64,000 nucleotides of DNA from Escherichia coli (GTDB lineage Bacteria > Pseudomonadota > Gammaproteobacteria > Enterobacterales > Enterobacteriaceae), in NCBI RefSeq assembly GCF_024298765.1, contig NZ_CP101210.1; one strand, 5' to 3'. Position numbers and translations under genes: made by a program. How positions within the stretch are numbered: position 1 is the stretch's first letter; the number at the start of each line of letters is the position of its first letter. The notes beneath the pieces are model-generated. The model ran no database searches. It was not told the origin of the DNA and saw nothing but the letters and a program-made list of their open reading frames with translations. Positions 5,356 through 64,000 of the stretch are shown piece after piece.

Positions 5356-6735
5356 ATGAAAAAATTAACCTGCTTTAAAGCCTATGATATTCGCGGGAAA
5401 TTAGGTGAAGAACTGAATGAAGATATCGCCTGGCGCATTGGTCGCGCCTATGGCGAATTTCTCAAACCGAAAACCATTGTGTTAGGCGGTGATGTCCGCC
5501 TCACCAGCGAAACCTTAAAACTGGCGCTGGCAAAAGGTTTGCAGGATGCGGGCGTCGATGTGCTGGATATTGGTATGTCCGGCACCGAAGAGATCTATTT
5601 CGCCACGTTCCATCTCGGCGTGGATGGCGGCATTGAAGTTACCGCCAGTCATAATCCGATGGATTACAACGGCATGAAACTGGTGCGCGAAGGGGCTCGC
5701 CCGATCAGCGGCGATACCGGACTGCGCGATGTCCAGCGTCTGGCAGAAGCCAACGACTTTCCTCCCGTTGATGAAACCAAACGCGGTCGCTATCAGCAAA
5801 TCAACCTGCGTGACGCTTACGTTGATCACCTGTTCGGTTATATCAGTGTCAAAAACCTTACGCCGCTCAAGCTGGTGATTAACTCCGGGAACGGCGCGGC
5901 GGGTCCGGTGGTGGACGCCATTGAAGCCCGCTTTAAAGCCCTCGGCGCACCGGTGGAATTAATCAAAGTACACAACACGCCGGACGGCAATTTCCCCAAC
6001 GGTATTCCTAACCCGTTGCTGCCGGAATGCCGCGACGACACCCGTCATGCGGTCATCAAACACGGCGCGGATATGGGCATTGCCTTTGATGGCGATTTTG
6101 ACCGCTGTTTCCTGTTTGACGAAAAAGGGCAGTTTATCGAGGGCTACTACATTGTCGGCTTGCTGGCACAAGCGTTCCTCGAAAAAAATCCCGGCGCGAA
6201 GATCATCCACGATCCACGTCTCTCCTGGAACACCGTTGATGTGGTGACTGCCGCAGGCGGCACCCCGGTAATGTCGAAAACCGGACACGCCTTTATTAAA
6301 GAACGGATGCGCAAGGAAGACGCCATCTACGGTGGCGAAATGAGCGCCCACCATTACTTCCGTGATTTTGCTTACTGCGACAGCGGCATGATCCCGTGGC
6401 TGCTGGTCGCCGAACTGGTGTGTCTGAAAGGAAAAACGCTGGGCGAACTGGTGCGCGACCGGATGGCAGCATTTCCGGCAAGCGGTGAGATCAACAGCAA
6501 ACTGGCGGACCCCGTTGAGGCGATTAACCGCGTGGAACAGCATTTTAGCCGTGAGGCGCTGGCGGTGGATCGCACCGATGGCATCAGTATGACCTTTGCC
6601 GACTGGCGCTTTAACCTGCGCTCCTCCAACACCGAACCGGTGGTGCGCCTGAATGTGGAATCGCGCGGTAATATAGCATTAATGAATGAACAGGTTGAAT
6701 TTATTACAAAATTTTTAAACGGTGATGGTTTATGA
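5356..6735 (+). CDS. manB: phosphomannomutase
   Basis: 459 aa; phosphohexomutase active-site region TASHNP; follows manC. Confidence 0.9.
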
Positions 6736-41487: not shown

Positions 41488-41817
41488 TGTAAATATTCTT
41501 CCGTTGTAAATGGCGCTGGAAAATTTCTCATCAGTGAAACCTTCCGGAAGTTTCCCCCCCTTGTATGATGTATATCGCCAGTATTTTATTTCATCCCGGC
41601 TGTAATTTTTATATTCCCCGGCACGTGCAATAACGCTGACCAGAGATATAAGGCTCATTAATAACTTTACAGGTAATTTCATAATTAAATTTCCAGTGAG
41701 TGAATTGACAGGTGAGGGGTAAAACTTTCTCTCAGGTAATATATATATGAAAATATTTTCAATAACACCAGACAGGAAAAACACCACCACAGGCGGTGGC
41801 GTTTCTTTGGGGCGTCT

Positions 41818-42888
41818 TTATTTAATCCGGGCCATCGCGTTTCTCAGTGCCAAATCTGCCTCTTCCGTTATATCCAGGCTTTTCTGCAATACCGCCTCTG
41901 ACCGGGTCAGTGCCTGACGTGCTGCCAGCGGTTTCCGGATATGCTCCATCGCCAGCATCGTGTCTTCATAGCCCTGCTGACGCCAGGCGTCGGTATGTGC
42001 CGATGTAAAACTGAGCAGACCGCCGCTGTTGCCACCATCACCTGCATATTTCAGCCTTTTCCGGGGACGGATCTCAAGGATTGTGGTGTCCGGAAAAGCC
42101 TGGCGATCCCATAAAGAACCCTCACTCAGATGCGTCACAATCACCATATTGCATCCGGCATCGACCAGAGGCGTCACAGGGGTATTTCCCTGCATATTTC
42201 GCCATCCTCCCATACCACCATCACCGAACATTGTCCCCTGAACCTCACGGGGACGGAACAGCAGGGGCAGCGCGGCTGACGCAAGCAGAGCCTCTTTCTG
42301 CTGTCCGCGGGGCAGGCTCTGGATATGCTGAAAAACGGCGTTTTTCGTGGTTCCGACACCCAGTTCAGCACGAATGCAGTCAATAATATCCTGCATGCCC
42401 CCTTCTGTGGGGTACAGCGACACATACAGCGGTAGCCCGTCTGCCAGAGCATCAGTATCAAGATAATGATCCATCAGCGCTGTCAGGGGCTCATCTGACA
42501 ACAACGGCTGAGCCATCAGATTGTCAAACCCGTTGATTGTCGATATATGGCGAAGAAGCGTCGTAAGCAGTGCTCCTGCACGTCCGGGGATCTGGCAGAG
42601 GTTCATTGCCTGGAACAATTTTTTCAGCAATGAAAAGTAAACCAATCTGTTTACCGACAGCACCTGATTATTCCCCAGATGATCCCAGAGCGCCTCCAGG
42701 CGTACGGCAGCTTCTGACAGATCGGGAGAGGCCGCGATAATGGCACCATTGAATGCGCCAATGCTGGCCCCTGAAACCATGCTGATCTGTGTACCACACT
42801 CTGCCAGTGCCTTAACCACTCCCGCCTGATAAGCGCCCACCGCCCCGCCACCGGACAGCACCAGCCCCGTTTTCATTTCTGTACTCAT
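41818..42888 (-). CDS. patatin-like phospholipase
   Basis: 356 aa; oxyanion-hole SGGGAVGAYQAG, nucleophile elbow GASIG, catalytic Asp motif FGDGGM; start codon overlaps upstream gene stop. Confidence 0.85.
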   Translation of the reverse strand: MSTEMKTGLVLSGGGAVGAYQAGVVKALAECGTQISMVSGASIGAFNGAIIAASPDLSEAAVRLEALWDHLGNNQVLSVNRLVYFSLLKKLFQAMNLCQIPGRAGALLTTLLRHISTINGFDNLMAQPLLSDEPLTALMDHYLDTDALADGLPLYVSLYPTEGGMQDIIDCIRAELGVGTTKNAVFQHIQSLPRGQQKEALLASAALPLLFRPREVQGTMFGDGGMGGWRNMQGNTPVTPLVDAGCNMVIVTHLSEGSLWDRQAFPDTTILEIRPRKRLKYAGDGGNSGGLLSFTSAHTDAWRQQGYEDTMLAMEHIRKPLAARQALTRSEAVLQKSLDITEEADLALRNAMARIK

Positions 42889-43790
42889 GCAGCCCCCTTC
42901 TGAAATATTTCATCGACCATACTTTCAGAGAGGCGTTCTGCAGAGCAGAGGCGAGGCATGCGAACCGGTAAGTGTTCTGCAGCCTGCGTGGTTGACCAGA
43001 TCACCGGATGCTGCTCTTCACTGCACCAGTCTCCCAGCCAGTTAATCGCGTCATGCCACTCGTTATCTGCCTGCTCCCGGCCCTGACCACCAAGCCAGTC
43101 CAGAGTGTTCAGACGCACGGTTGCACTACCGCCACTCTCCTGTGCCATCTGCGTTAATGCTTTATGTCTGAGAATATCCAGTAGCTGGTTAACCTGGCCT
43201 GTTTCGCTCTGACGTATCACATCACCAAACGCGCCCCAGCGAAGCTCTTCAAGTGCCACATAACAACGTCCGGCAGGGGAAAATGACGCATATCGCCCGG
43301 CGCTCCACCATGAGAATATCTGCTCAAGATGTAACTGCGCCCGCTGAACCTGGTCAACACGGTGGAGTTTTTCTTCAAGATGATTCAGTTTATGGTGAAC
43401 CTGATCGGCCAGGGTGAGTAACTGCTCCCGCGTATCTGCGGAATAATGCGCCAGCCTGGCTGTATCACTGACCAGTGAACTGACCCTGTCGTTTACCCGG
43501 GTAATCGCGTAGTTTGTGGTGGCAAGTGACGTTGTCAGCTCCGTCAGCCAGCGCAGGGATGCCTCAACGCCCTGTGCAAGCGAAGCATTGATGGCATTCT
43601 GCCGTGCAGCACCTTCGCCGCTCAGCCCCTCTTTTAACCGCCGGAAGAACGTGCGCTCTCCGGCCGTGCGGATATGCTCCTGTGCAACATCGATACCGTT
43701 TGCGAAATCAACCACAAATTTTTCAGGAAGACAGGTGAGTACCTGACATACCCGGTTATCAGCAATTTGTTGAATAAATGGTGAAGTCAC
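42885..43790 (-). CDS. coiled-coil protein, possible YjcZ-like partner of dynamin-like GTPase
   Basis: 301 aa, helical/coiled-coil character, no enzymatic motif seen; overlapping stop/start junctions with both flanking genes. Confidence 0.5.
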   Translation of the reverse strand: MTSPFIQQIADNRVCQVLTCLPEKFVVDFANGIDVAQEHIRTAGERTFFRRLKEGLSGEGAARQNAINASLAQGVEASLRWLTELTTSLATTNYAITRVNDRVSSLVSDTARLAHYSADTREQLLTLADQVHHKLNHLEEKLHRVDQVQRAQLHLEQIFSWWSAGRYASFSPAGRCYVALEELRWGAFGDVIRQSETGQVNQLLDILRHKALTQMAQESGGSATVRLNTLDWLGGQGREQADNEWHDAINWLGDWCSEEQHPVIWSTTQAAEHLPVRMPRLCSAERLSESMVDEIFQKGAA

Positions 43791-46183
43791 AGCATTGTCT
43801 CCAGTTCTTCCCTTAACGCCTTACTGTCAGTAATGAGCTCAGGAACTCTTTCATTTAACGCCTGAAGACGCCCGGTCAGCCGTTCCTGCGCCTGCTGATC
43901 GCGTTTATGATCTTCAGAGCTCTGAATCAGCGTGTTACGCAGCTGTTCAACTTTCTCCCTGAATGTACAGAAAAAGGCATCGATTTCCTGGCGGACGGGC
44001 TGGTTAATATCCTGCTCAATGGATGCCTGCAGCTCCCCGAAATATGCCCGGGTCAGTGACATCACCTCCTTCCTGACCTTGTTGATATTGATAACACTGC
44101 GGCTCACATCCACGTTATAGTTTTCCCATCCCCATTCTTTGGTGCCAATCCATCCACAAATCTTTCCAATGAAGCTATCCTTCCGACGGCGACGGGTGAC
44201 TGTCTCCGTTCTTTCCTCCATAAGCGCACTCAGATTTGTTTTTACCGCGAGCCGGGTCTGTAACTGACTGACTGCCGGAAAACTGATTTTTACAGTGAAG
44301 CCCTCATCCGCCAGGCGGGCATTGATACGTCCGGCGATGTTTTCTGTCGCATACAGGGCCGTACCACGAAAACCTGTTTCAATCCCGCTGACGATTTTCT
44401 CCAGCTCAGGCCGGAACTGTGCCTCAGCCTCACTGTGCAGGCTGGTCACGGTCGATTCGATTTGCGTCATCAGTTCAAGGGCTTCCCTGCGATTATTTAA
44501 TGTTATCTCGGGGTTTTCCGGATCAAAGACTCGTATCCTGTCATCCTCCCAGCCCGGGTTATTGATACCGGACCATCGATAAATCTTTCCCCATAATCCG
44601 GACCGGGACCTTCGTTGTTCTGTGTCTTCTTCCTCCAGCATTTGCTGTTCTTTGCGTTTACCGGTTCTGAAATAGTCATTCAGTTCCTCTTCCAGTGAGG
44701 TGCAGACCCCCGTGAGTAATTCCCGGGTTCTGGCATCGATCTCCTCCATGGCCATTCTGACATCAGCGGTCACCTGCTCCTGACAGTCCGCGATTTCCCG
44801 GATATCCGCAAGCAGGCTGGTGATATGCGCCTGCAGTGACTGAATGCTTTGCTGTAGCCCCTGATGGCGTAATGACAGATATTCGCTGACATTTTCCGCA
44901 TTCTGCATCAGTTTTGCGGCGGCAGAATCAACCGCCAGTGCCGCCGCTCTGGAATGGGAACTCTGTATGACTTCCGTTATCAGTTGATCGATAAGTGAGC
45001 CTTCCCACAGGTCTGTTGCCCCTTCAGTTGCCAGTTCGCTGTCTTTACAGACGTAATCTTTTTTCATGCGACCGAAAGCTTCCCTGACAAAATCATCGAC
45101 CCAGGCTTCATCAACAGGAAGGGTTCCGTTTTTCCGTAACTCATGAAGCGCACGGTTAGCCAGGTATGCCTGGCGTGAGGATCCGGGATAAACGCGGGAG
45201 GCGGGCAGCACATCGCTGTTCAGCATTGCCGGAACTTTCTGGCGTACGGCATCTGCCCCATCGCCATTGCGGTCTTTCTCATCAAATTTATTGACCAGCA
45301 CAAACAGGCGGCCAACTGATACGTCCGCAATGGCATTAAGCTCTTTACGGACGTCTTCATCCGCTTTTGAGTTCATCTGGGTGTAATCCATCACTGCCAG
45401 AACCGCAGAAGCTTTCTGCAGTTGATCCCGCATCATCACTTCCATCTGCGGCTGGCCGGCTTCATTAGGGCCGGGGGTATCCAGCAGTGTGAGTGTTCCC
45501 TGGCATGCATCCATCCCCACCAGATGGCTGAATTCCACGTCGATCACCGGCAGTTTCTGCACTTCTGCGTATTCATCAAAAGGAAACTCACTCCCCATTG
45601 CCGCAGCAAGACGAACCAGATCGTTTAACGATGCCAGTCCGGTAAAGATTTCCTCCTCCCCGTGGTATTCATTTTTGAGCCAGCCATCATCCGTCAGAAT
45701 ATCCAGCAGTTCACGGGTATCCCCGGTTTGCAGCAGGGTCTGTGCGACTTGCTGTCCTGCCGGGGTGGCGAGTTTTTCCTGCAGTGTGATTAATAAATTG
45801 CGGACAGGCTGAATATGTTCCAGATGGAGGACCGGCTCAGTTTTTCCGGGAACGTGGCGGATGAGTGTCGGTACAGAGGTCATGGGGCGGTTACGGTTAG
45901 GCAGAATTTCCTGCCCCACAATGGCGTTGATGGTGGTTGATTTGCCTGCTTTCATCGTGCCGACAACAGCCAGCACCATCTCCCTGCGGGCGGTTTTGAT
46001 TTGTTCGCCCTCCAGCTCCTCAATTCTTTTCAGCGCTTTCCGTTTATCAAAAAGCAGCCCGTTTTCGTTCTTACTGTCAGATAACACATCCGGCTCATCA
46101 ACCATTTGCCGGAGCAGATTGATATTCAGTTGCAAAAGCCGGTCGGCTTCATCACAAAGCAGGGCGATGTTCTTTTCGTGCAT
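43787..46183 (-). CDS. bacterial dynamin-like GTPase (CrfC/YjdA/LeoA-like)
   Basis: 798 aa; G1 GTMKAGKST, G3 DTPG, G4 NKFD in N-terminal third; long helical stalk C-terminally; RBS aggaagg upstream. Confidence 0.8.
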   Translation of the reverse strand: MHEKNIALLCDEADRLLQLNINLLRQMVDEPDVLSDSKNENGLLFDKRKALKRIEELEGEQIKTARREMVLAVVGTMKAGKSTTINAIVGQEILPNRNRPMTSVPTLIRHVPGKTEPVLHLEHIQPVRNLLITLQEKLATPAGQQVAQTLLQTGDTRELLDILTDDGWLKNEYHGEEEIFTGLASLNDLVRLAAAMGSEFPFDEYAEVQKLPVIDVEFSHLVGMDACQGTLTLLDTPGPNEAGQPQMEVMMRDQLQKASAVLAVMDYTQMNSKADEDVRKELNAIADVSVGRLFVLVNKFDEKDRNGDGADAVRQKVPAMLNSDVLPASRVYPGSSRQAYLANRALHELRKNGTLPVDEAWVDDFVREAFGRMKKDYVCKDSELATEGATDLWEGSLIDQLITEVIQSSHSRAAALAVDSAAAKLMQNAENVSEYLSLRHQGLQQSIQSLQAHITSLLADIREIADCQEQVTADVRMAMEEIDARTRELLTGVCTSLEEELNDYFRTGKRKEQQMLEEEDTEQRRSRSGLWGKIYRWSGINNPGWEDDRIRVFDPENPEITLNNRREALELMTQIESTVTSLHSEAEAQFRPELEKIVSGIETGFRGTALYATENIAGRINARLADEGFTVKISFPAVSQLQTRLAVKTNLSALMEERTETVTRRRRKDSFIGKICGWIGTKEWGWENYNVDVSRSVININKVRKEVMSLTRAYFGELQASIEQDINQPVRQEIDAFFCTFREKVEQLRNTLIQSSEDHKRDQQAQERLTGRLQALNERVPELITDSKALREELETML

Positions 46184-46244
46184 TATTTAACCTTCCTAAG
46201 ACGCATTTTCATGACAACCACGGAGGAGGTCATTTACTACAAAT

Positions 46245-46279
46245 GATCGTTTATAACGATCGATATGATAGTAACGATC
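46245..46279. promoter_or_regulatory. cluster of three GATC (Dam) sites in 5' region of the dynamin-like operon
   Basis: GATC at 46245, 46258 and 46276; aacgatcgat occurs twice 18 bp apart; 62-96 bp upstream of the GTPase start codon. Confidence 0.5.
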
Positions 46280-46400
46280 GATGTATTCTATTAACTTGAG
46301 AAACACAACGCAAGGGGACAACCCGGGTATGGCTGCGTTTGCATAGTGTTTTCATGGAGTTAAAAATCTGTAACAACAGCCTGGTACATCACCACCGGGT

Positions 46401-47312
46401 TCAGAAGAAAATCCAGTTCCATACCACGCGGGCAACAGAGACCACCGAGTCACGGACGGCGCGCAGAACCGTGCGTGCAACAGAGGCAATGCAGACGCTC
46501 TCCGCCGTGTCAAATATCCGGTCCACCGCACCGGTAAACTGTTCACGGGCCTGAGACCGGACAGACTCCGTGCGCAGCTCGTCCTGCAGGCGGGTCATCA
46601 GGGGACTGGCGGCATGGTCGGGAAGTGCTGTCATGAGCGCACTGACCAGCGTATCCAGTTCCCAGCCGGTGCGGGCCGATACGGCAACAACCCGATGTAC
46701 GGGCCGGAACAGACGGAATACCGCCTCCGTTTTTTCGCGAATGTTCTGTGCCTGTGCGGGAGAAGGCTGAATACCGGCCATATCCCATTCATGGCAGGGC
46801 TCCGTTTTATCGGCCTGCATCACCACAAACAGTACCCGCTGATGTCCCCGGTGCAGGATGTGTCGCCAGAAATACTCATCCACAGACAGGGCACGGTCAT
46901 CGGCTTTAATCAGCCACAGTACCAGGTCCAGTTCGAGCAGAATGTCACGGTACAGGGCTTCATACTCTGCATCCCTGTCCCGGCTCTCGCCCACCCCGGG
47001 CAGGTCAGTGATAACCATGCTGTGACCATGGCCATTCAGACGGAAGCGCTGCACTTCCCGGGGGCCGGCGTGAACATCACTGACCGGGGTGACCTCCCCC
47101 TGAAACAGCGCATTACAGAGTGAGGATTTACCGGCCCCGCTTTTACCCATAATGCCAGGCACGGGTTCGTGACTGGTGAGTTTGCGCAGATGTTCCAGGA
47201 TGTGACGGGAAAGTGAGTAAGGCAGGGAGGAGAGCGGTTTTTCAATTGCCTCAATGGCATCAGACGGATTCATACATGTATTCCCGGTGAAAAAAGACAA
47301 AACCCCGCGCAC
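46401..47312 (-). CDS. YeeP/YfjP/YkfA-family GTPase, apparently intact
   Basis: P-loop GIMGKSGAGKSSL, DLPG, VMQADK motifs; possible start at internal MNPSDAIE (47273). Confidence 0.8.
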   Translation of the reverse strand: MRGVLSFFTGNTCMNPSDAIEAIEKPLSSLPYSLSRHILEHLRKLTSHEPVPGIMGKSGAGKSSLCNALFQGEVTPVSDVHAGPREVQRFRLNGHGHSMVITDLPGVGESRDRDAEYEALYRDILLELDLVLWLIKADDRALSVDEYFWRHILHRGHQRVLFVVMQADKTEPCHEWDMAGIQPSPAQAQNIREKTEAVFRLFRPVHRVVAVSARTGWELDTLVSALMTALPDHAASPLMTRLQDELRTESVRSQAREQFTGAVDRIFDTAESVCIASVARTVLRAVRDSVVSVARVVWNWIFF

Positions 47313-50075: not shown

Positions 50076-50459
50076 ATGCGCGCTAAAGAAAGACTTCCCC
50101 GGAAACACTATTCCCCTGAATTCAAAATGGAACTGGTCAGGCTGGCTCTTGAAGAAGAAGGCAGTATTGCCGCACTGGCCCGGAAACATGACGTCAATGA
50201 TAACCTGCTCTTTAAATGGATAAGGCTCTGGCAGCGTGAAGGGCGGGTCTGTCGGCCCCGAAAAAACTCATCGTCGCTTCCTGCCCTGATACCCGTGCAG
50301 CTTCAGGCGGGCTCTTCTCTCCCAACCTTCGAACTACCATCCTGCTCTCCTCCCGCTACCTGCCACATAAAATGTCGGGGAGGAGAAATAACACTGACTC
50401 ATCCCTCTGCTGAACTCATGAGCACTGTCCTGCGCGAACTGATGCGGGGGCCTGTATGA
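50076..50459 (+). CDS. IS66 family accessory protein (orf1/TnpA)
   Basis: 127 aa; HTH-like N-terminus; first ORF of IS66 element. Confidence 0.8.
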   Translation: MRAKERLPRKHYSPEFKMELVRLALEEEGSIAALARKHDVNDNLLFKWIRLWQREGRVCRPRKNSSSLPALIPVQLQAGSSLPTFELPSCSPPATCHIKCRGGEITLTHPSAELMSTVLRELMRGPV

Positions 50460-50803
50460 TAAATCTTCCCGCAGGCACAAAAATCTGGCTGGTTGCCGGT
50501 ATCACCGATATGCGCAACGGCTTCAATGGCCTCGCCGCAAAGGTGCAGACCGCGCTGAAAGATGACCCGATGTCCGGCCACGTCTTCATCTTCCGGGGAC
50601 GCAGCGGCAGTCAGGTAAAACTGCTCTGGTCCACCGGCGATGGTCTGTGCCTGCTGACAAAGCGACTGGAACGTGGTCGCTTCGCCTGGCCCTCAGCCCG
50701 CGATGGCAAAGTGTTCCTGACGCCGGCGCAACTGGCGATGCTGATGGAAGGTATCGACTGGCGACAGCCAAAGCGGTTACTGACATCCCTGACCATGTTG
50801 TAG
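50456..50803 (+). CDS. IS66 family accessory protein (orf2/TnpB)
   Basis: 115 aa; overlapping start with orf1 stop; typical IS66 organisation. Confidence 0.8.
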   Translation: MINLPAGTKIWLVAGITDMRNGFNGLAAKVQTALKDDPMSGHVFIFRGRSGSQVKLLWSTGDGLCLLTKRLERGRFAWPSARDGKVFLTPAQLAMLMEGIDWRQPKRLLTSLTML

Positions 50804-50852
50804 CGCTCTTTATCCTGGTTGTCGCAGAATAAGCCTGGTAAAATACAGGCTT

Positions 50853-52388
50853 ATGAACGACACCTCTTCTGACGACATCCTTCTGCTGAAACAGCGCCTG
50901 GCCGAACAGGAAGCGTTGATCCACGCCCTGCAGGAAAAGCTGAGCAACCGGGAACGCGAAATAGACCATCTGCAGGCGCAACTGGATAAGCTGCGCCGGA
51001 TGAACTTCGGCAGTCGTTCCGAAAAGGTATCCCGCCGTATCGCGCAAATGGAAGCTGACCTGAACCTGCTGCAGCAGGAAAGCGATACGCTGACCGGCCG
51101 GGTGGATGACCCGGCAGTGCAGCGCCCGCTGCGTCAGACCCGCACCCGCAAACCGTTCCCTGAGTCACTCCCACGGGATGAGAAGCGGCTGCTGCCGACT
51201 GAGCCGTGTTGCCCGGAGTGCGGTGGTTCGCTGAGTTACCTGGGTGAGGATGCCGCCGAACAGCTGGAGCTGATGCGCAGCGCCTTCCGGGTTATCCGGA
51301 CAGTCCGTGAAAAGCATGCCTGCCGTCGGTGCGATCGCATCGTTCAGGCCCCGGCTCCTTCGCGCCCCATCGAACGGGGGATCGCCGGACCGGGGCTGCT
51401 GGCCCGAGTGCTGACCTCAAAGTATGCAGAGCACACACCGCTGTATCGCCAGTCGGAGATCTATGCCCGCCAGGGTGTAGTGTTGAGTCGTTCTGTACTG
51501 TCGGGCTGGGTGGATGCGTGTTGTCGTCTGCTGGCACCGCTGGATGAAGCCCTTCAGCACTATGTCCTGACCGACGGCAAACTCCATGCTGACGATACGC
51601 CTGTCCCGGTGCTGTTGCCAGGCAATAAGAAGACGAAGACCGGGCGCTTATGGACGTACGTTCGAGACGACCGCAACGCCGGATCAGCGCTGGCCCCCGC
51701 AGTGTGGTTCGCTTACAGCCCGGACAGAAAAGGTATCCACCCTCAGACCCATCTTGCAGGCTTCAGTGGCGTACTGCAGGCTGATGCCTACGCCGGGTTC
51801 AACGAGCTCTACCGCGACGGCCATATAAAGGAAGCCGCGTGCTGGGCCCATGCCCGCCGAAAAATCCACGATGTTCACGTCCGTACCCCGTCAGCCCTGA
51901 CGGAGGAGGCGCTGAAACGGATCGGCGAGCTGTATGCCATCGAGTCGGAGCTCAGAGGTAAAAGAGCAGAGGAACGGCAGGCAGTCCGGCACCAAAAAGT
52001 GCTGCCGCTGCTGGCGTCACTGGAGGGGTGGCTGCGGGAGAAACAGAAAACCCTCTCAAGGCACTCAGAACTGGCGAAGGCGTTCGGGTATGCGCTGAAC
52101 CAGTGGCCGGCGCTGACCCGCTATGCAGAAGATGGCTGGGTGGAGGTGGATAATAACATTGCCGAAAACGCCCTACGACTGGTCAGTCTGGGGAGAAAAA
52201 ACTGGCTGTTCTTCGGCTCGGATCATGGTGGTGAGCGCGGTGCGTCACTGTACAGTCTTATCGGGACGTGCAAATTAAACGGCGTGGATCCGGAACGCTA
52301 TCTGCATCATGTACTTGATGTCATCGCCGACTGGCCTGTGAACCGGGTGGGTGCTCTGCTCCCGTGGCGGGTTACTCTGCCCGCCTGA
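50853..52388 (+). CDS. IS66 family transposase (orf3/TnpC)
   Basis: 511 aa; N-terminal leucine zipper, CPECGG...CRRCD zinc motif, DDE region. Confidence 0.9.
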   Translation: MNDTSSDDILLLKQRLAEQEALIHALQEKLSNREREIDHLQAQLDKLRRMNFGSRSEKVSRRIAQMEADLNLLQQESDTLTGRVDDPAVQRPLRQTRTRKPFPESLPRDEKRLLPTEPCCPECGGSLSYLGEDAAEQLELMRSAFRVIRTVREKHACRRCDRIVQAPAPSRPIERGIAGPGLLARVLTSKYAEHTPLYRQSEIYARQGVVLSRSVLSGWVDACCRLLAPLDEALQHYVLTDGKLHADDTPVPVLLPGNKKTKTGRLWTYVRDDRNAGSALAPAVWFAYSPDRKGIHPQTHLAGFSGVLQADAYAGFNELYRDGHIKEAACWAHARRKIHDVHVRTPSALTEEALKRIGELYAIESELRGKRAEERQAVRHQKVLPLLASLEGWLREKQKTLSRHSELAKAFGYALNQWPALTRYAEDGWVEVDNNIAENALRLVSLGRKNWLFFGSDHGGERGASLYSLIGTCKLNGVDPERYLHHVLDVIADWPVNRVGALLPWRVTLPA

Positions 52389-52429
52389 CCAGCTTCACTT
52401 CGTCAATACGGTTCTCACTGCACGCTTAC

Positions 52430-56599: not shown

Positions 56600-57007
56600 A
56601 TGACTATGTACGCAAAATCCTTTATCGCTCTTGATGGCAACGGACGTCTGACGGGCGCCCGTACTGCACAGGCCGCACCTTATGCTAACTACACCTGCCA
56701 CTTGTGTGGCAGTGCACTCAGATACCATCCGCAATACGACACTGAACTTCCCTGGTTTGAACACACTGACGACAGGCTGACAGAGCACGGTCAACAGTGC
56801 CCTTATGTCAGGCCGGAGCGCAGAGAAATACAGTTGATTAAACGTCTGCAGCAATTCGTACCGGATGCCTTACCCGTGGTGCGTAAAGCCAGCTGGCACT
56901 GCAGACAATGTCACCACGATTATTATGGGGAGCGGTACTGCACACACTGCCAGACCGGAGGATTCAGTATTCCCCGGACAACTCAGGAGGAAATATGCGA
57001 ATTCTGA
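56600..57007 (+). CDS. CoiA-like zinc-finger domain protein, paralog 1
   Basis: 135 aa; CHLCGSAL...PWFEH and WHCRQCHH...CTHCQTGG motifs. Confidence 0.55.
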   Translation: MTMYAKSFIALDGNGRLTGARTAQAAPYANYTCHLCGSALRYHPQYDTELPWFEHTDDRLTEHGQQCPYVRPERREIQLIKRLQQFVPDALPVVRKASWHCRQCHHDYYGERYCTHCQTGGFSIPRTTQEEICEF

Positions 57008-57402
57008 ACTGTTATATGGCGAATGACAGCAAAGGCCATTTTGTTACGGCGAAAGAAGCAGCGAAGCACAACCGCCAGGACGTTTTGTGCTGTGTGTCCT
57101 GTGGATGCCCGTTAACACTTCAGCGGGGCAATGACGGACAACCACCGTGGTTTGAACATGACCAGATGACTGTCGCTGAGAAAATCCTGCTGCGATGCAC
57201 CTGGCTTGACCCGGCAGAGAAAGAGGCCCGTCGTTTGCATCTGCAGGGTATGACGGTTCCGGATTATACGGTGAAGGTGAGAAAGTGGTTTTGTGTGATG
57301 TGTGACGAAAATTATGAGGGGGAAAAGTGCTGCCCGAGTTGTGGTACCGGGGTATACAGCAGGGAGGGGGGGCAGGAGGGCAACTGGAAGGATAGGAACT
57401 GA
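56995..57402 (+). CDS. CoiA-like zinc-finger domain protein, paralog 2
   Basis: 135 aa from ATG 56995 preceded by aggagg; CVSCGCPL...PWFEH and WFCVMCDE...CPSCGTGV motifs; overlaps paralog 1 by 13 nt. Confidence 0.55.
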   Translation: MRILNCYMANDSKGHFVTAKEAAKHNRQDVLCCVSCGCPLTLQRGNDGQPPWFEHDQMTVAEKILLRCTWLDPAEKEARRLHLQGMTVPDYTVKVRKWFCVMCDENYEGEKCCPSCGTGVYSREGGQEGNWKDRN

Positions 57403-57685
57403 GCGGTTCAGTCGCGGAAATCAGTTGCAGAGCTGTAATGATATCTCCGGGAGTGCTGCGTTGGTAGGGGCATCCCGGGATAGAGAAATTTTAGCACTTT
57501 GCCCTGAATGATTGTAGACGTCCCGAGTACTCGTACCGGTCTGAGTTATTACAGTTAGATATTCACTTTTTCTCCCGCATACTTCACATCTGTCAACGAC
57601 GGATGAAAAGTGGTTCTTCCGCAACCTGGGTGGAAGAAAATGGATGAAACTTTCTGGCGAACAAGGATCTAAGCTGTTTTAAGTT

Positions 57686-59310
57686 ATGGGCAACGCAATG
57701 CACTCTCTTAAGACACTTCTACAGTTACCTTGCGGATGGCGATGCAGTCGACAAATTATTAGCTCTGACGGTATAACCCTCCATCTCCACGGAAAACGCA
57801 AAACAGCACAATGTCCTGAATGCTTTAAGCGTAGCGACTCTGTTCATAGTTGTCGTCGGCGCCGGATACAGCATCTACCCTGCTCAGGGCAGACGCTATG
57901 GCTTGTATTTTCCGTCCGCCACTGGTACTGCCGTAACCCGGCTTGTTCACGTAAAATTTTTGCCGAGTCGCTTGCTCCCTTCGCCAGTTCACACCAGCAG
58001 TCTTCACAGGCGTTACAAAATTAACAACGTCAACTGGGATTAATAGCTGGAGGTGAGGCTGGAAAACGGGCTGCAACGGCAGTGGGTCTCCGTTGCAGTG
58101 CTGATACTCTTCTTCGCAGGCTTATCAATACCCCGGAGACGAAACAGTCAGGCGCGCCTCATGTCGGTATTGATGAGTGGGCGTGGCATCGGGGCCACTG
58201 CTGCGGTATGTTAATAGTCAATCCTGATACTCACCGTCCCCTCGTCCTGCTTCCCGGCCGTGATCAGCGTACGCTGGCGACCTGGTTCAGAAAATATCCG
58301 GAAATACAGGTTGTCTCGCGTGATCGCAGTGGAGTCTATGCGACAGCAGCACGTGAAGGTGCACCTCAGGCCAGACAGGTGGCCGATCGATGGCACCTGC
58401 TAAAAAATATTGGTGATGAGCCTGAACGAATGATGTACAGACATATGCCTCTGATACGTCTTGTTGTCAGAGAGTTATCACTGAAGAAATCACCTGAGCC
58501 AGAAATATCTGTGCCTGTAGCATCGCTCCGTCGTCTGGAACGCCTTAAACAGCACATCCGCAAAAAACGGCATCAGCGTTGGACAGAGGTTATGGCCCTG
58601 CATAACAAGGGATGTAGTTTCAGGGAAATATCCCGTATTACAGGCCTGTCGCGAGTGACAGTCAGTCGCTGGGTGAGTTCAGGAACATTCCCTGAAATGT
58701 CAACCAGGCCTCCAAAGCGAGGGCTTCTGGACCCATGGAGGGAGTGGTTAAAAGAGCAACGAGAATGTGGTAATTATAACTCCGGCCGGATATGGCGGGA
58801 AATGGTGGCCAGGGGGGTTACAGGCAGTGAAACCATCGTCAGGGATGCTGTTGCCAAATGGCATAAAGGCTGGATCCCACCGGTTACTACTGCCGCAAGA
58901 CTTCCTTCAGTGTCACGGGTAAGCCGCTGGTTGATGCCCTGGAGAATAATCAGGGGTGAAGAAAATTATGCTTTCCGATTTATTAGTCTGATGTGTGAAA
59001 AAGAACCGGAGTTGAAAATAGCGCAGCAACTGGTACTCGAGTTCTACCGTATTCTGAAAACCTAAAATAAATCACAGCTAAGCAGCTGGTTCACTCGGGT
59101 CCACGAAAGCGGCTCAGCAGAACTTCGGTGCGTAGCTGCGGGGATGGAAGCTGATGCTGCGGCTATATGTGAGGCAATCAGCAGTCGCTGGAGTACTGGT
59201 GTTGTCGAAGGTCATGTAAATCGCCTGAAGGTGCTGATACGCCAGATGTATGGTCGAGCCGGACTTGAACTACTTAGGCGGAGGGTAATGAGTCCACTGG
59301 CATGAAAATC
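57686..59310 (+). mobile_element. ISL3-family transposase gene, disrupted (at least three frames)
   Basis: N-terminal zinc-ribbon ORF 57686-58024, DDE-like ORF 58082-59065 (GIDEWAWHRGH..., DRWHLLKN), C-terminal ...WSTGVVEGHVNRLKVLIRQMYGRAGLELLRRRVM in a third frame. Confidence 0.6.
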
Positions 59311-59348
59311 TTCACCCAGGTTGAGGAAGAGCCACTTTTGCACTGTTC

Positions 59349-59677
59349 GTGACAGTATGGCCTTTATGTACTCACTTTGTTACCGGTAGCTGGATCATCA
59401 CTACCGTGCCGCAAATGGTGGTGAACAGCATCAATTGTGGAATGAATGTTGCCGAAGCGACCAATGCGCCTCGTTTCCACCATCAGTGGTTGCCGGACGA
59501 GCTGCGTGTTGAAAAGGGTTTAGTCCGGATACGCTCAAGCTGCTGGAAGCAAAAGGTCAGAAAGTGGCGCTGAATGAGGCGATGGGCAGCACGCAAAGCA
59601 TTATGGTTGGGTCGGATGGTGAGTTGTACGGCGCATCCGACTCGCGCTTGGTGGATGATTTAACGGCGGGGTATTAA
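59349..59677 (+). pseudogene. ggt: gamma-glutamyltranspeptidase 3' fragment, frameshifted
   Basis: ...IITTVPQMVVNSINCGMNVAEATNAPRFHHQWLPDELRVEKG then 1-bp shift to FSPDTLKLLEAKGQKVALNEAMGSTQSIMVGSDGELYGASDSRLVDDLTAGY*; only the C-terminal ~110 codons present. Confidence 0.75.
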
Positions 59678-59716
59678 TTGACATCCCCCGGCGCAATGTG
59701 CCGGGGGATAATGGTT

Positions 59717-60751
59717 TTATGCGGTCAATAATCGTCCGGGATTATCGATACAGAGTTTTTTGAGGATCGTTTTATCGACGCCGCGCTCCGCCAGATAGGC
59801 CAGAAAAACATCTGGAACAAATCCCCAGCCATTACCGCCATTTTTAGCCCACATTTGTTTAAGGAAGACATCGTGGCTGAGAACAAGCTGATCGGCGTAT
59901 CCCAACTCAATGAGATGAGCGACGGCATCGGCAGTCTCCTGCACCCCTGGCGCTATTCCCTCTTTCGGGAAGGTAATGTCTAGGCCAATCATGTCGAATT
60001 CCAGCCAGACACCTTTATCAAGCATTTTCCGCTGATACGCCACGTCTTTTCCTGACGGATCCGAGTGTGCGAGAGAGACTTTATTTGGCGAGACGCCCAT
60101 TTCACCTAACACAATGTCGAGTACTTCATCACCGCGACGAAGCCAGCCCGGCATGTGAATATTCATCGCCACATGAGGATTGTTAATCTGTGCCAGCGAG
60201 GCAGCCCGCAAGCTGTTATGCTCGGCTTCGGTAAATGTCGGTGAGACACCTATTTCACCGATCATTCCGGCACGAATATCCGTATCGCCAATCCCTTGAT
60301 TCAATTCTTTATCGATCGTTGTCGCTAGTTCATCAACCGTTTTATGAATTCTCTGGCTTTCAAATTTTTCCAGGTAGGGACCGGAGGAAGCAACAATATT
60401 CAGACCTGTTTTTAATGCGACTTCTCGTAATGCCTGCGCATCTCGTCCGATAGACTCAGACCCTGTGGCATCAACAATGGTGCGACCACCGAGCGAGATA
60501 AAGTTATTAATTTCGAAGATCACATCTTCAATAGGTTTGCGGTCCATATTATCAGCGCAGCAATAAGGATCGTGTTTTAATGCCCACTGGATTTCTGCCG
60601 TGACTTTTTTATCAACAAGCTGTTGTGAAAAAGGATAGCAAGGAGCATCCACAACAGAGGAAAGATCGTTGAACAGATGTTCATGAGGAAGTGTTAGCCC
60701 CATATCTTCACGGGCGACGGGGCCCGTCACAGTTTGTAGATAATCTTTCAT
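59717..60751 (-). CDS. phosphotriesterase-family (PHP-like) metal hydrolase
   Basis: 344 aa; N-terminal GLTLPHEHLF metal-binding motif. Confidence 0.8.
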   Translation of the reverse strand: MKDYLQTVTGPVAREDMGLTLPHEHLFNDLSSVVDAPCYPFSQQLVDKKVTAEIQWALKHDPYCCADNMDRKPIEDVIFEINNFISLGGRTIVDATGSESIGRDAQALREVALKTGLNIVASSGPYLEKFESQRIHKTVDELATTIDKELNQGIGDTDIRAGMIGEIGVSPTFTEAEHNSLRAASLAQINNPHVAMNIHMPGWLRRGDEVLDIVLGEMGVSPNKVSLAHSDPSGKDVAYQRKMLDKGVWLEFDMIGLDITFPKEGIAPGVQETADAVAHLIELGYADQLVLSHDVFLKQMWAKNGGNGWGFVPDVFLAYLAERGVDKTILKKLCIDNPGRLLTA

Positions 60752-60753
60752 GA

Positions 60754-61718
60754 TTATACCTCCATTTTCTTCATTGTTTTCGAGGCTCTGTATTCCGGAA
60801 TAGTGGTAACAATTGCACCGACCAGTGCAAACAGTGTTCCGATGATCGTGACCAGATAAACGGTATTGCCCAGCGATGGAATTAATACGTCAATCAATAC
60901 TGATCCCAGTAACTGGCCCGCCGTTGAAGCAACCCCCAGCATCAGTAACCCCAGACCTCTGACCAAAATGGCCATTAAACCGATAGACATTAGTCCAAGC
61001 GGGCCGCCAAGATACATCCACCAGACATCTGGTAATTGAACAGTGACGTGCCCTAATGCGACACGAATAGCTAGCGCTGTGCCTAAAACACAAAATCCAA
61101 CGATGAAATTCTAGGTGATTGAAACCAGCATGATCCCGTAGCTTCAGCTACTTTTGCATTTCCAGCGGGCTGCCATCCTGCAAGCAAACCAGCTAAGAAC
61201 GGAAGAATGGCAAGTAAGATGAAAGAGGTAGAATGCCACTGAGGTGACACAACAAAAATCGTAGCAATAACCGCAAATAATGCACCGATGATGCGATAAG
61301 GGGTAAAGTATTTTTTCTCGTCGACACCGATACCAAAGCGATCGCAAAGTAAACCAGACAGCAATAGCGCGGAGATCAGTGCGGTCTGAAACGTTGCGAC
61401 CCCGAGTGCGCTGGCTGATGCGCCTTCAGAAAATACCACCATCGCTCCACAGAGACCGGCAAACCAGTTCCAGAGAGGAACTTTTCGGTTTTTAATCAGA
61501 GAAGGAATTGCCGCAAATTGTTGCCGGGTTTCTTTTCGCGCCATAATAATAAAAAACATCACGACTAAACCACTGGCAAAGGAGATAACTGCGCATGCAT
61601 TACCATCCTGTAACCAGTGACCTAATTGACCATTCACCGCTGATTGCATAGGGGAGAGCATACCCGCAAGAATCGTGGCAAGCATCCATAAGGGAGTTGA
61701 GTACTTATTCTTTTTCAT
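60754..61718 (-). pseudogene. membrane transporter, split into two ORFs by frameshift
   Basis: hydrophobic ORFs 61083-61718 and 60754-61017 in different frames; second frame is open across the junction (…NFIVGFCVLGTALAIRVALG…). Confidence 0.5.
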
Positions 61719-61774
61719 ACATCAATCCTTCTATTATAGTAAATGGAGTAACTGGAGTTACCCCATTATTATTA

Positions 61775-62532
61775 TTATCTTGCAATATGAGTCAGTATAT
61801 TTACCCACAACGCGGTATAGAACGGCCAGGACATAAACTGCTGTGTACCCCAGTGCGGTGAACAGTCACTCATAAAGCAGGCTATTTTCCCGTTGTGATA
61901 GTTACCAAAGACCAGTAATGGAGCGTTGTTTATTGTTAATACCACCTCAGCATTTTCTTTAGCGATCGCCCGGTTATAACCTAGGAAAAAAGGATATTCA
62001 GAGAACCCTTTAATAACTGGATGTTCAGGTTGTGATGGCTGTGCAATAACACCCTCTGGTTTTTCGACACGATCGTCACCATCTAACATCGTAACCGGGA
62101 GCACATCAGCCAGAACTGTATTTTTATAATTGGCTTTTGCTTCAATTCCCATGAATGAGAGATAGCCGCCAATCATCAATAACCCACCACCGTTATTCAC
62201 ATATTCTTTAATCAGTTCGAGAGCGTTTGGTTTTATGCGAAGCTGATAAAAAGTATCATTTTGTAGCAGGAAAGTATTACTACCAATATCACTAATAACG
62301 ATGGCATCATATTGTTCTAACTGTGCCACATCTTCAGGGAAGGCAATTTGTACCGTATGTGCTGGCATATAGGTGACATCTACCTGACTATTTTTCAGAC
62401 ACTGGAGTAACCAGGTGCACCTTCTTCATATTTACTTGAGGTAAAACTGTCATATCCTTTTGAATGAATCATATGAATATGCCAGGATTCCCCAATAAAG
62501 AGCACTTTTAGTGATTTTTTGGTGTTATTCAT
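61775..62532 (-). pseudogene. class-I glutamine amidotransferase-like fold protein, frameshifted near N-terminus
   Basis: ORF 61775-62368 plus upstream MNNTKKSLKVLFIGESWHIHMIHSKGYDSFTSSKYEEGA in another frame. Confidence 0.4.
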
Positions 62533-62643
62533 TCTCTGTCCTTTCTTAATGCGTAAAAATAGTTTGCTGATAATGTATACTCTGAATTCGATGTATCACA
62601 GATTCATGTTCAGGCATGTCGGAAGCATTGCTTGTCTCCACCG

Positions 62644-63755
62644 CTAGGGATGCAAAGGCGCTGGCATAACACAGTGCTGATTCCAGTGATTTTCCTTTCG
62701 CAAGTCCTGATGCCAGAGAGCCGTTAAACGCATCCCCGGCTCCTGCCGTATTTTTAACGACCGCTGGAAACGCTGGCGAATGAATTTTTTGCCATCAAAT
62801 GCGAGCGAGCCCTTGCTACCGAGCGTGATAACCGTGTTTTTTACCCCTTTATTGTGGATAGCTTCTGCAGCTCGTTTAGCTGATTCAAGATCGTGTACGT
62901 CTATGCCGGACAGTAAACCAGCTTCTGTTTCATTGGGGGTGATATAATCAACATCCTGAATAAGTTCGTTGACGATATCATTATAGGGTGCCGGGTTAAT
63001 AATGACCGGGATACTGTTTTTTTGCGCCAATGTGATCGCTTGTTGCAGAGCGGTATAATTTGTTTCGAGCTGCAGAAGTATGACATCAGAATTAATAATC
63101 GCTTCTTTCTGAATAGTTATTTCATCGGACGACATTGTCATGTTGGCACCGGGATAGATCGCAATAACATTATCGCCAGTACCTTCATTAACAAGGATCG
63201 TGGCAGTTCCGGTTTGCGTTTCTTTCGTTTGATAAATTATACTTTTATAAATCTTAGACGAATTCATAAAGTTGATCGCATAATCACTAAAGTGATCTGT
63301 ACCTACTTTTGTTATGAAATAAACATCAGTATCGGCAAAGCTTGCTGCCAGCGCCTGGTTACAGCCTTTTCCCCCGGTGAAAATATAAAATTACTTGCCA
63401 GAAGCGATTCTCCGATAGTGGGAAGCCTCGGCAAATAACTGATGATATCAACATTAAACGAACCAATAACGCATACTTGACTTTTCATAGTTGAGTGGCC
63501 TTTTTTTATTCCCTGGGCTGTATCATAATTTTCAAGCGCATAAGCGATTTCATTTTTCGCAATAGTATCAAGCGAGTCTAGGACGATAAAAGCACCGCCA
63601 TGACATCGAGTCAGATAGCCAAGCCTGGCAAGTTCATTAAGATCTGAACGAATAGTTTCTTTCGTTACATTGAGGCTATTGGACAGATCGGATACTTTTA
63701 CAGAACCGAATTTACTGAGTCGTTTCAATATTTCATGATGGCGTTCAAATTTCAT
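62644..63755 (-). pseudogene. DeoR-type HTH fused or adjacent to PfkB/ribokinase-like sugar kinase, at least two frameshifts
   Basis: N-terminal HTH; kinase region VCVIGSFNVDII...; frame breaks at C5 run (about 63365) and A6 run (about 62790); C-terminal TAGAGDAFNG motif only in shifted frame. Confidence 0.55.
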
Positions 63756-63863
63756 GCTTCACCTCACTTCAGTTACGTTAATATCTGTCGATGTATATTG
63801 ATGTGATAATCACCATAAAGTGGCGGGGAAAAGCAAAAAAAAGCAAAAATAGCCTGAGAAAAG

Positions 63864-64000
63864 GTAAGCGTTAATGGAGAATCATATTGATGCTTATTTA
63901 TTGGTGAGAACTACGTTCCATGGCAGGAGTTCATCAATACGGTTGGAAGGTTATTCCGGCAGTACGCTCAGGATATGGCGCAGATACGCTTCCGGATCAA
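63864..64000 (-). mobile_element. IS66-family element, 3' end (continues beyond window)
   Basis: gtaagcgttaatgg terminal IR at 63864; minus-strand translation ...ELLPWNVVLTNK* parallels the fragment at 36535-36712. Confidence 0.7.

Follow-up and report, generated by a model that had tools for sequence, protein, structure and literature searches.

Why do the remains of an ISL3-family transposase gene and the 3' end of a gamma-glutamyltranspeptidase gene (ggt) lie side by side in the Escherichia coli chromosome? A first-pass annotation of the window (by which we mean the whole 64,000 nt stretch of DNA analysed) read the pair as an old, inactive insertion that appeared to have cost ggt its 5' four-fifths. 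The window is chromosomal E. coli DNA, and its positions 57400–59800 are 100% identical to several complete genomes. In RefSeq, this stretch carries the labels 'ISL3 family transposase (internal stop)', 'gamma-glutamyltransferase (frameshifted, missing N-terminus)' and 'phosphotriesterase-related protein'. Both pseudogenes are already annotated in RefSeq E. coli genomes, and the insertion sequence concerned, ISEc38, is catalogued; the features themselves are known. The question is how they came to be joined.

The ISEc38 copy

The element is an ISEc38-like insertion sequence of the ISL3 family. It is inactive, but at 1764 bp it is full length, and it spans 57591..59354 on the plus strand; the first-pass annotation, with a start at 57686, had drawn it too narrowly. 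Compared with four RefSeq-annotated ISEc38 copies, it aligns over positions 1–1764 without gaps at 95.0–95.2% identity (95.2% against plasmid copies). By the usual ISfinder rule of ~95% DNA identity the element would be called ISEc38, as a borderline case and as measured against RefSeq-annotated copies. Its ends (TGTCAACG...CGTGACA) were set where five independent copies diverge from their flanks. An inverted-repeat search returned 42 nt repeats at these same ends: IRL at 57591..57632 (+) and IRR at 59313..59354 (+). The repeats are imperfect, with IRL matching the reverse complement of IRR at 33/42 positions. Terminal inverted repeats are thus present at both ends, as expected of the ISL3 family, and agree with the ends of independent copies. 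One ISEc38 copy from elsewhere, on plasmid B of E. coli strain C5, has its terminal repeats swapped, each end bearing the sequence that the opposite end has in the other copies, with the element body in unchanged orientation.

The transposase pseudogene occupies 57686..59305 (+). Its assignment to the ISL3 family, made in the first-pass annotation, is upheld by Pfam: the product contains an N-terminal zinc ribbon (Zn_ribbon_ISL3, PF14690; E 4.7e-8) and an ISL3-type catalytic domain (DDE_Tnp_ISL3, PF01610; E 8.4e-16, with a further C-terminal match at E 1.9e-3). The same annotation described the gene as broken into at least three frames, which is not the case. The three ORF pieces lie in one 540-codon frame, which has no indel, is of the same length as the intact gene and is interrupted by two in-frame TAA codons: (i) at 58022–58024, where codon 113 has changed from Leu to stop, and (ii) at 59063–59065, where codon 460 has changed from Gln to stop. 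With 498/540 residues identical to the intact ISEc38 transposase, the frame is closely related to that of an active element but, given the two TAA codons (the 'internal stop' of RefSeq), is not itself intact. In summary, the window copy shares with ISEc38 its length of 1764 bp, its terminal sequences and its single 540-codon transposase gene. It differs in that (i) two in-frame stops render it non-functional, (ii) no direct repeat flanks it, and (iii) it is not mobile, but sits fixed at a single place in the chromosome of roughly half of E. coli genomes.

Three other strains were compared with the window. The stop at Gln460 is common to the copies of HS, an ST131 isolate and 96_1414B, whereas the stop at Leu113 is private to the window lineage. 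A further stop, at codon 88, is peculiar to ST131, and the HS and 96_1414B copies contain a GG insertion. The IS differs by ~2% between the window and the copies of these three strains, and by 84 substitutions (4.8%) from active copies. Within the gene, 58 substitutions relative to ISEc38 are common to the window and ST131 copies, 20 are found in the window only, and 13 in ST131 only. The dN/dS ratio is 0.35 against active copies and 0.21 between active copies, indicating that part of the 4.8% divergence predates inactivation. Indeed, these sequence comparisons suggest that much of it may be divergence between IS lineages. Reading the 4.8% as pure post-insertion decay, and so as an age, was dropped on the basis of the two dN/dS values.

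The first-pass annotation proposed a search for terminal inverted repeats, which were found as above, and for a target-site duplication, which was not: the window copy is flanked by ACATC on the left and GTATG on the right, with no duplication at either 5 or 8 bp. An 8-bp target-site duplication is typical of the ISL3 family. We examined duplications for eleven ISEc38 copies at seven distinct sites, including the window copy; the other ten are plasmid copies, representing five independent insertions. Five-bp direct repeats (ACAAC, AGTAC) flank 2/5 independent plasmid insertions, while 3/5 have none. Since repeats are also absent at three plasmid insertions, a missing duplication counts for less with ISEc38 than with an IS that has been well characterised. 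The absent duplication speaks to how the window copy came to be where it is, and not to its membership of the ISL3 family. A blastn search (word size 7) found no second ISEc38 copy or fragment in the window or in the 26-kb equivalent locus of strain AR_452.

The ggt remnant and its block

Downstream of the IS lies a C-terminal GGT fragment that ends at 59677, as the first-pass annotation reported; it is here called ggt'. The fragment matches the GGT family profile (PF01019; E 2.8e-10, profile positions 420–465 of 512). It occupies 59379..59677 (+) and corresponds to codons 478–580 of the 580 codons of K-12 GGT, with a DNA identity to the K-12 ggt 3' end of 92.5–92.7%. The last 103 codons (18% of the gene) are present and ~82% is missing, close to the four-fifths originally estimated. 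A complete GGT precursor is not encoded: ggt' begins at codon 478/580, and no 5' part was found elsewhere. The remnant lacks the large subunit and the region of Thr391, the autocatalytic and catalytic threonine of E. coli GGT. Three further lesions are apparent: (i) a 12-nt deletion between 59390 and 59391, located between CGGTAGC direct repeats, (ii) the loss of one A from the run at 59512–59515, causing a frameshift, and (iii) a premature stop at 59571–59573. Judging from these sequences, no functional product is expected from either the transposase gene or ggt'.

The left boundary of ggt' does not coincide with the IS. The gap of about 40 bp between transposase gene and ggt fragment that was first reported reflects an ORF with a GTG start at 59349, within the terminal repeat of the IS, and this ORF is spurious. 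Homology to ggt in fact begins at 59379, which is 74 nt past the transposase stop and 24 nt past the IS end at 59354. The 24-nt spacer, GTATGGCCTTTATGTACTCACTTT, lies at 59355..59378, between the ISEc38 end and the ggt breakpoint. Aligned in register with K-12 ggt, it is identical at 5/24 positions (chance level), compared with 92.7% over the next 299 nt. The stretch of ggt matching the spacer position is highly conserved among K-12, Citrobacter and Salmonella, and the spacer is unlike it. Searches of the window and the fetched loci (allowing ≤5 mismatches, and by 12-mers) found no other occurrence of the spacer, nor did blastn against 5426 E. coli genomes, apart from the same junction.

At its other end, homology between ggt' and K-12 ggt stops exactly at the stop codon, and the sequences downstream of it are unrelated. 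In the window, a G+C-rich hairpin of 12 pairs lies at 59683..59709 (+), between ggt' and a convergent phosphotriesterase-related gene (php), and is likely the original shared terminator of the two. The php-like gene (59717..60751, minus strand; identified by ORF and annotation) encodes 344 aa and is intact. It is the last gene of an operon and converges on ggt'. In a scan of one genome per bacterial species, its closest relatives were in Citrobacter and Salmonella enterica subsp. diarizonae, at 86–88% amino-acid identity, and in both these groups the php homologue adjoins an intact ggt, again convergently. The Citrobacter loci also match K-12 ugpQ-yhhA-ggt on the side of ggt away from php, which identifies them as the native, orthologous ggt locus.

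The similarity to these loci extends well beyond php. By blastn, 59384–63850 and the ggt-php loci of Citrobacter spp. and S. enterica subsp. diarizonae are collinear, with ~76% DNA identity, which defines a 4.5 kb block at 59379..63850. The block contains the ggt 3' end, php, a DMT transporter gene, a glutamine amidotransferase gene, a DeoR/PfkB regulator-kinase gene and ~95 nt of upstream region, and the Citrobacter locus has php, DMT, amidotransferase and DeoR/PfkB in the same order. Of the four operon genes in the window, php is the only intact one. The transporter gene (60754–61718, minus strand) has an internal stop, while the amidotransferase gene (61775–62532, minus strand) and the DeoR/PfkB gene (62547–63756, minus strand) each have a frameshift; all three are seen as split ORFs and carry pseudogene flags on the AR_452 sequence. 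Their Citrobacter counterparts are intact and encode 322, 253 and 404 aa, respectively.

On the right, the block is bounded by an IS66-family terminus (GTAAGCGT...), situated at most 14 nt from the end of Citrobacter homology. Together with a 3' part it occupies 63864..64000 (minus strand), is ISEc23-like (83%), is annotated as a transposase fragment and runs off the window. In AR_452, this fragment is followed by an IS4 fragment and a truncated cobalamin-biosynthesis gene, and then by cobU.

Despite the gene order, the sequence of ggt' is of Escherichia type: it is ~82% identical to the ggt of Citrobacter and Salmonella (K-12 ggt itself is at ~84%) and aligns to codons 478–580 of E. coli ggt (K-12 b3447) at 92.7%, with the same stop codon. 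Unlike b3447, however, ggt' is located in a genomic island and not at ugpQ-yhhA, lacks the catalytic part, and carries a deletion and a frameshift. Against the sampled resident E. coli ggt alleles its identity is 91.5–92.9%, which places it outside their range. Horizontal import from a donor and translocation from an ancestral E. coli ggt-php locus in the same genome may each account for the block.

Island setting and spread of the junction

The genes around the junction include cbtA/cbeA, yeeS/T/W, a GTPase gene, an inovirus-Gp2-family gene and zinc-ribbon genes, with cobUST beyond. These neighbours place the region in a CP4-44-type island in the yeeX-cobU interval, and the ISEc38/ggt' region is a patchwork junction within that island, near its cobU side. 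The genes listed are typical of CP4-44-type, IS-assembled island mosaics, as is the marking of segment boundaries by several IS remnants (here IS66 family, IS4 and ISEc38). The CP4-44-type island of K-12 differs in that the ggt'-php block is absent; the single ggt-fragment match in K-12 genomes is the resident gene.

Annotation was transferred from strain AR_452, with which the window is collinear, one to one, only at 41735–64000; within this range the AR_452 sequence used is 99.8% identical to the window. An IS66-family element inside the island, at ~50127–52389, has tnpA, tnpB and a frameshifted tnpC according to this annotation. A run of genes at ~41818–47273 encodes a patatin-like phospholipase, an RdcB-family protein, a dynamin-family protein (~800 aa) and a GTPase, a combination reminiscent of an island-borne module against phages or stress. 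Outside the collinear range, the O-antigen region at the window start differs from that of AR_452, and AR_452 has an IS621 (IS110 family) in a FUSC-family gene (a pseudogene between sbmC and tmaR) that is not present at the corresponding window position (~35190).

The non-coding left flank of ISEc38 (57403..57590) lies 3' of a zinc-ribbon gene (56908–57402). A paralogous island of strain W4 aligns with the window at 93% up to 57379, and weaker similarity is visible to ~57480. From this alignment, we consider the left flank to be native CP4-44-type island DNA, recognisable as such to ~57480, about 110 nt short of the IS. The flank was found in 2831 genomes. The paralogous island of W4 has the same zinc-ribbon gene, followed by an IS3-family element and a cut-off nhaC. 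The commonest plasmid insertion of ISEc38 (pE1246_1) also adjoins nhaC, and the link to the W4 nhaC may be a coincidence.

The exact junction (IS end, spacer and ggt') occurs once per genome in 2648/5426 complete E. coli genomes, with up to ~2.5% difference in the junction stretch among carriers. A distribution this broad indicates that the event is old and, together with the two transposase stops, bears out the first-pass description of an old, inactive insertion. A 200-bp query across the IS/ggt' junction was also used, and a sample of 60 matches taken down the ranking fell into three classes: full junction, IS only, and resident ggt only. No empty site or flank-only variant was found in that sample. 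Later, independent insertions have hit the block in other lineages: ISEc23 lies in the ggt' of HS (at the equivalent of 59541) and IS4 in the php of ST131 strain CU568-3. In 96_1414B, an IS3-family pseudogene lies beside a truncated php.

The resident ggt, by comparison, is intact at ugpQ-yhhA-ggt in ~5421/5426 complete E. coli genomes. Its 5' 1423 nt were found at 5433 places in 5425 genomes, or about one per genome, and neither an orphan 5' ggt piece nor a full-length second ggt copy was found across the 5426 genomes. The 5' portion of ggt, for which the first-pass annotation had suggested a search, is present only within the intact resident gene. The resident gene is unusually polymorphic, its 5' 1423 nt being only 90–95% identical to K-12 in 1898/5425 genomes.

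Origin of the junction

Did ISEc38 insert into ggt? A simple insertion leaves both halves of the gene flanking the IS, along with a duplicated target, and this combination is not found at the window locus: no ggt-like sequence lies on the left side of ISEc38. The absence of a duplication and the presence of 24 nt of unrelated DNA before the ggt breakpoint argue that ISEc38 was not simply inserted into ggt. The originally proposed removal of the 5' four-fifths of the gene by the insertion is not supported, in view of these two observations, the island DNA of the left flank, the intact resident ggt and the position of the fragment at the edge of a block collinear with the Citrobacter/Salmonella ggt-php locus. 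The first-pass annotation had itself named two observations that would speak against its reading. One of them, an intact ggt elsewhere, is what we find; the other, a fragment unrelated to the IS boundary, holds only in part, the breakpoint being 24 nt away.

In our judgement the most probable account, and one that we hold with good confidence, is that a dead ISEc38 sits at the junction between native island DNA and an imported block, and that only the last 103 codons of this second ggt arrived or were retained. The block would be the distal part of a Citrobacter/Salmonella-type ggt locus (ugpQ-yhhA-ggt-php), cut inside ggt at codon 478. For the ISEc38/block junction, the most economical history would be an IS-associated rearrangement. 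Given the 24 nt that separate IS and breakpoint such a rearrangement is plausible, and we see it as evenly balanced against other routes. It could have taken either of two forms: (i) homologous recombination of an ISEc38 copy in the island with another that lay 24 nt from a ggt'-php block truncated earlier, or (ii) insertion of ISEc38 next to the block and, on its left, a subsequent adjacent deletion mediated by ISEc38. The IS66-family end at the other edge of the block would fit IS-driven assembly. The searches turned up neither a further ISEc38 copy nor an unoccupied site or a donor, and either form may apply. Subsequent decay would account for the transposase stops, the deletion and frameshift in ggt', and the breakage of 3/4 operon genes.

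That the breakpoint lies so close to the IS end, at a distance of 24 nt, points to a causal link for which this account offers no full explanation. The same closeness speaks for an alternative in which ISEc38 transposed into an intact ggt at this very site, with the insertion or a linked deletion removing the 5' 82% of the gene. IS elements cause adjacent deletions, after which a missing duplication is as expected. A deletion adjacent to the right end would, however, leave ggt abutting the IS, and 24 nt of chance-level sequence intervene; the left flank is island DNA, and not ggt or yhhA. Moreover, none of the 5426 E. coli genomes holds a full-length version of the second ggt, and with the resident ggt intact no ggt function has been lost. 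We regard this alternative as distinctly unlikely. An association of IS and breakpoint by mere coincidence, in which import of the block truncated ggt and ISEc38 arrived nearby later, losing its duplication by point mutation, is more improbable still. Such a sequence of events would agree with a breakpoint that is not at the IS end, and with the age of the IS, long enough for 84 differences from active copies to build up. Yet ACATC and GTATG share only 2/5 positions, so that erasing a 5-bp duplication requires at least three changes in five positions, in a neighbourhood that has diverged by only ~1–2.5% among strains. Nor would an unrelated insertion be expected to lie between native island DNA on the left and the block on the right.

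A different challenge concerns the source of the block rather than its junction. Since ggt' is of Escherichia type (92.7% to K-12 versus ~82% to Citrobacter/Salmonella), it could be a within-genome duplicate: an ancestral ggt-php piece would have moved to the island and the native operon would later have been lost, with no foreign DNA involved. The region 3' of the resident ggt is indeed variable (K-12 has yrhB, yrhD, IS1 and yrhA there), and resident ggt alleles differ by up to ~6% among E. coli strains. Nevertheless, ggt' stands at ~92–93% to every resident allele sampled, beyond the range that these alleles span among themselves. In the per-species scan, none of the Escherichia species, each represented by one genome, yielded a php relative, and the operon is not beside the resident ggt in any E. 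coli genome; the operon occurs at a median of one place per genome. We judge a within-genome duplicate to be unlikely, although it deserves some weight, and prefer the account of an imported block joined to a dead ISEc38.

What does the locus mean for E. coli? A match to a 'second ggt' in an E. coli genome is a relic of the imported ggt-php block, and does not signify damage to the real ggt. Similarly, the 'ISEc38' of many mobile-element typing surveys of E. coli may often be the fixed, dead chromosomal copy and not an active element. More tentatively, the block could be all that is left of an Escherichia ggt locus, ancestral or of a sister lineage, that had kept its php operon, a reading that we consider possible but doubtful. 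If true, recombination mediated by ISEc38 and IS66 would have brought the block into a CP4-44-type island ahead of the diversification of E. coli, and the fixed, dead ISEc38 would be a datable marker of the ggt'-php capture. The same reading may explain reports of 'ISEc38' by IS-typing tools in about half of all E. coli genomes. The block hints that the Escherichia lineage once had the php operon and ggt as neighbours, an arrangement that Citrobacter retains.
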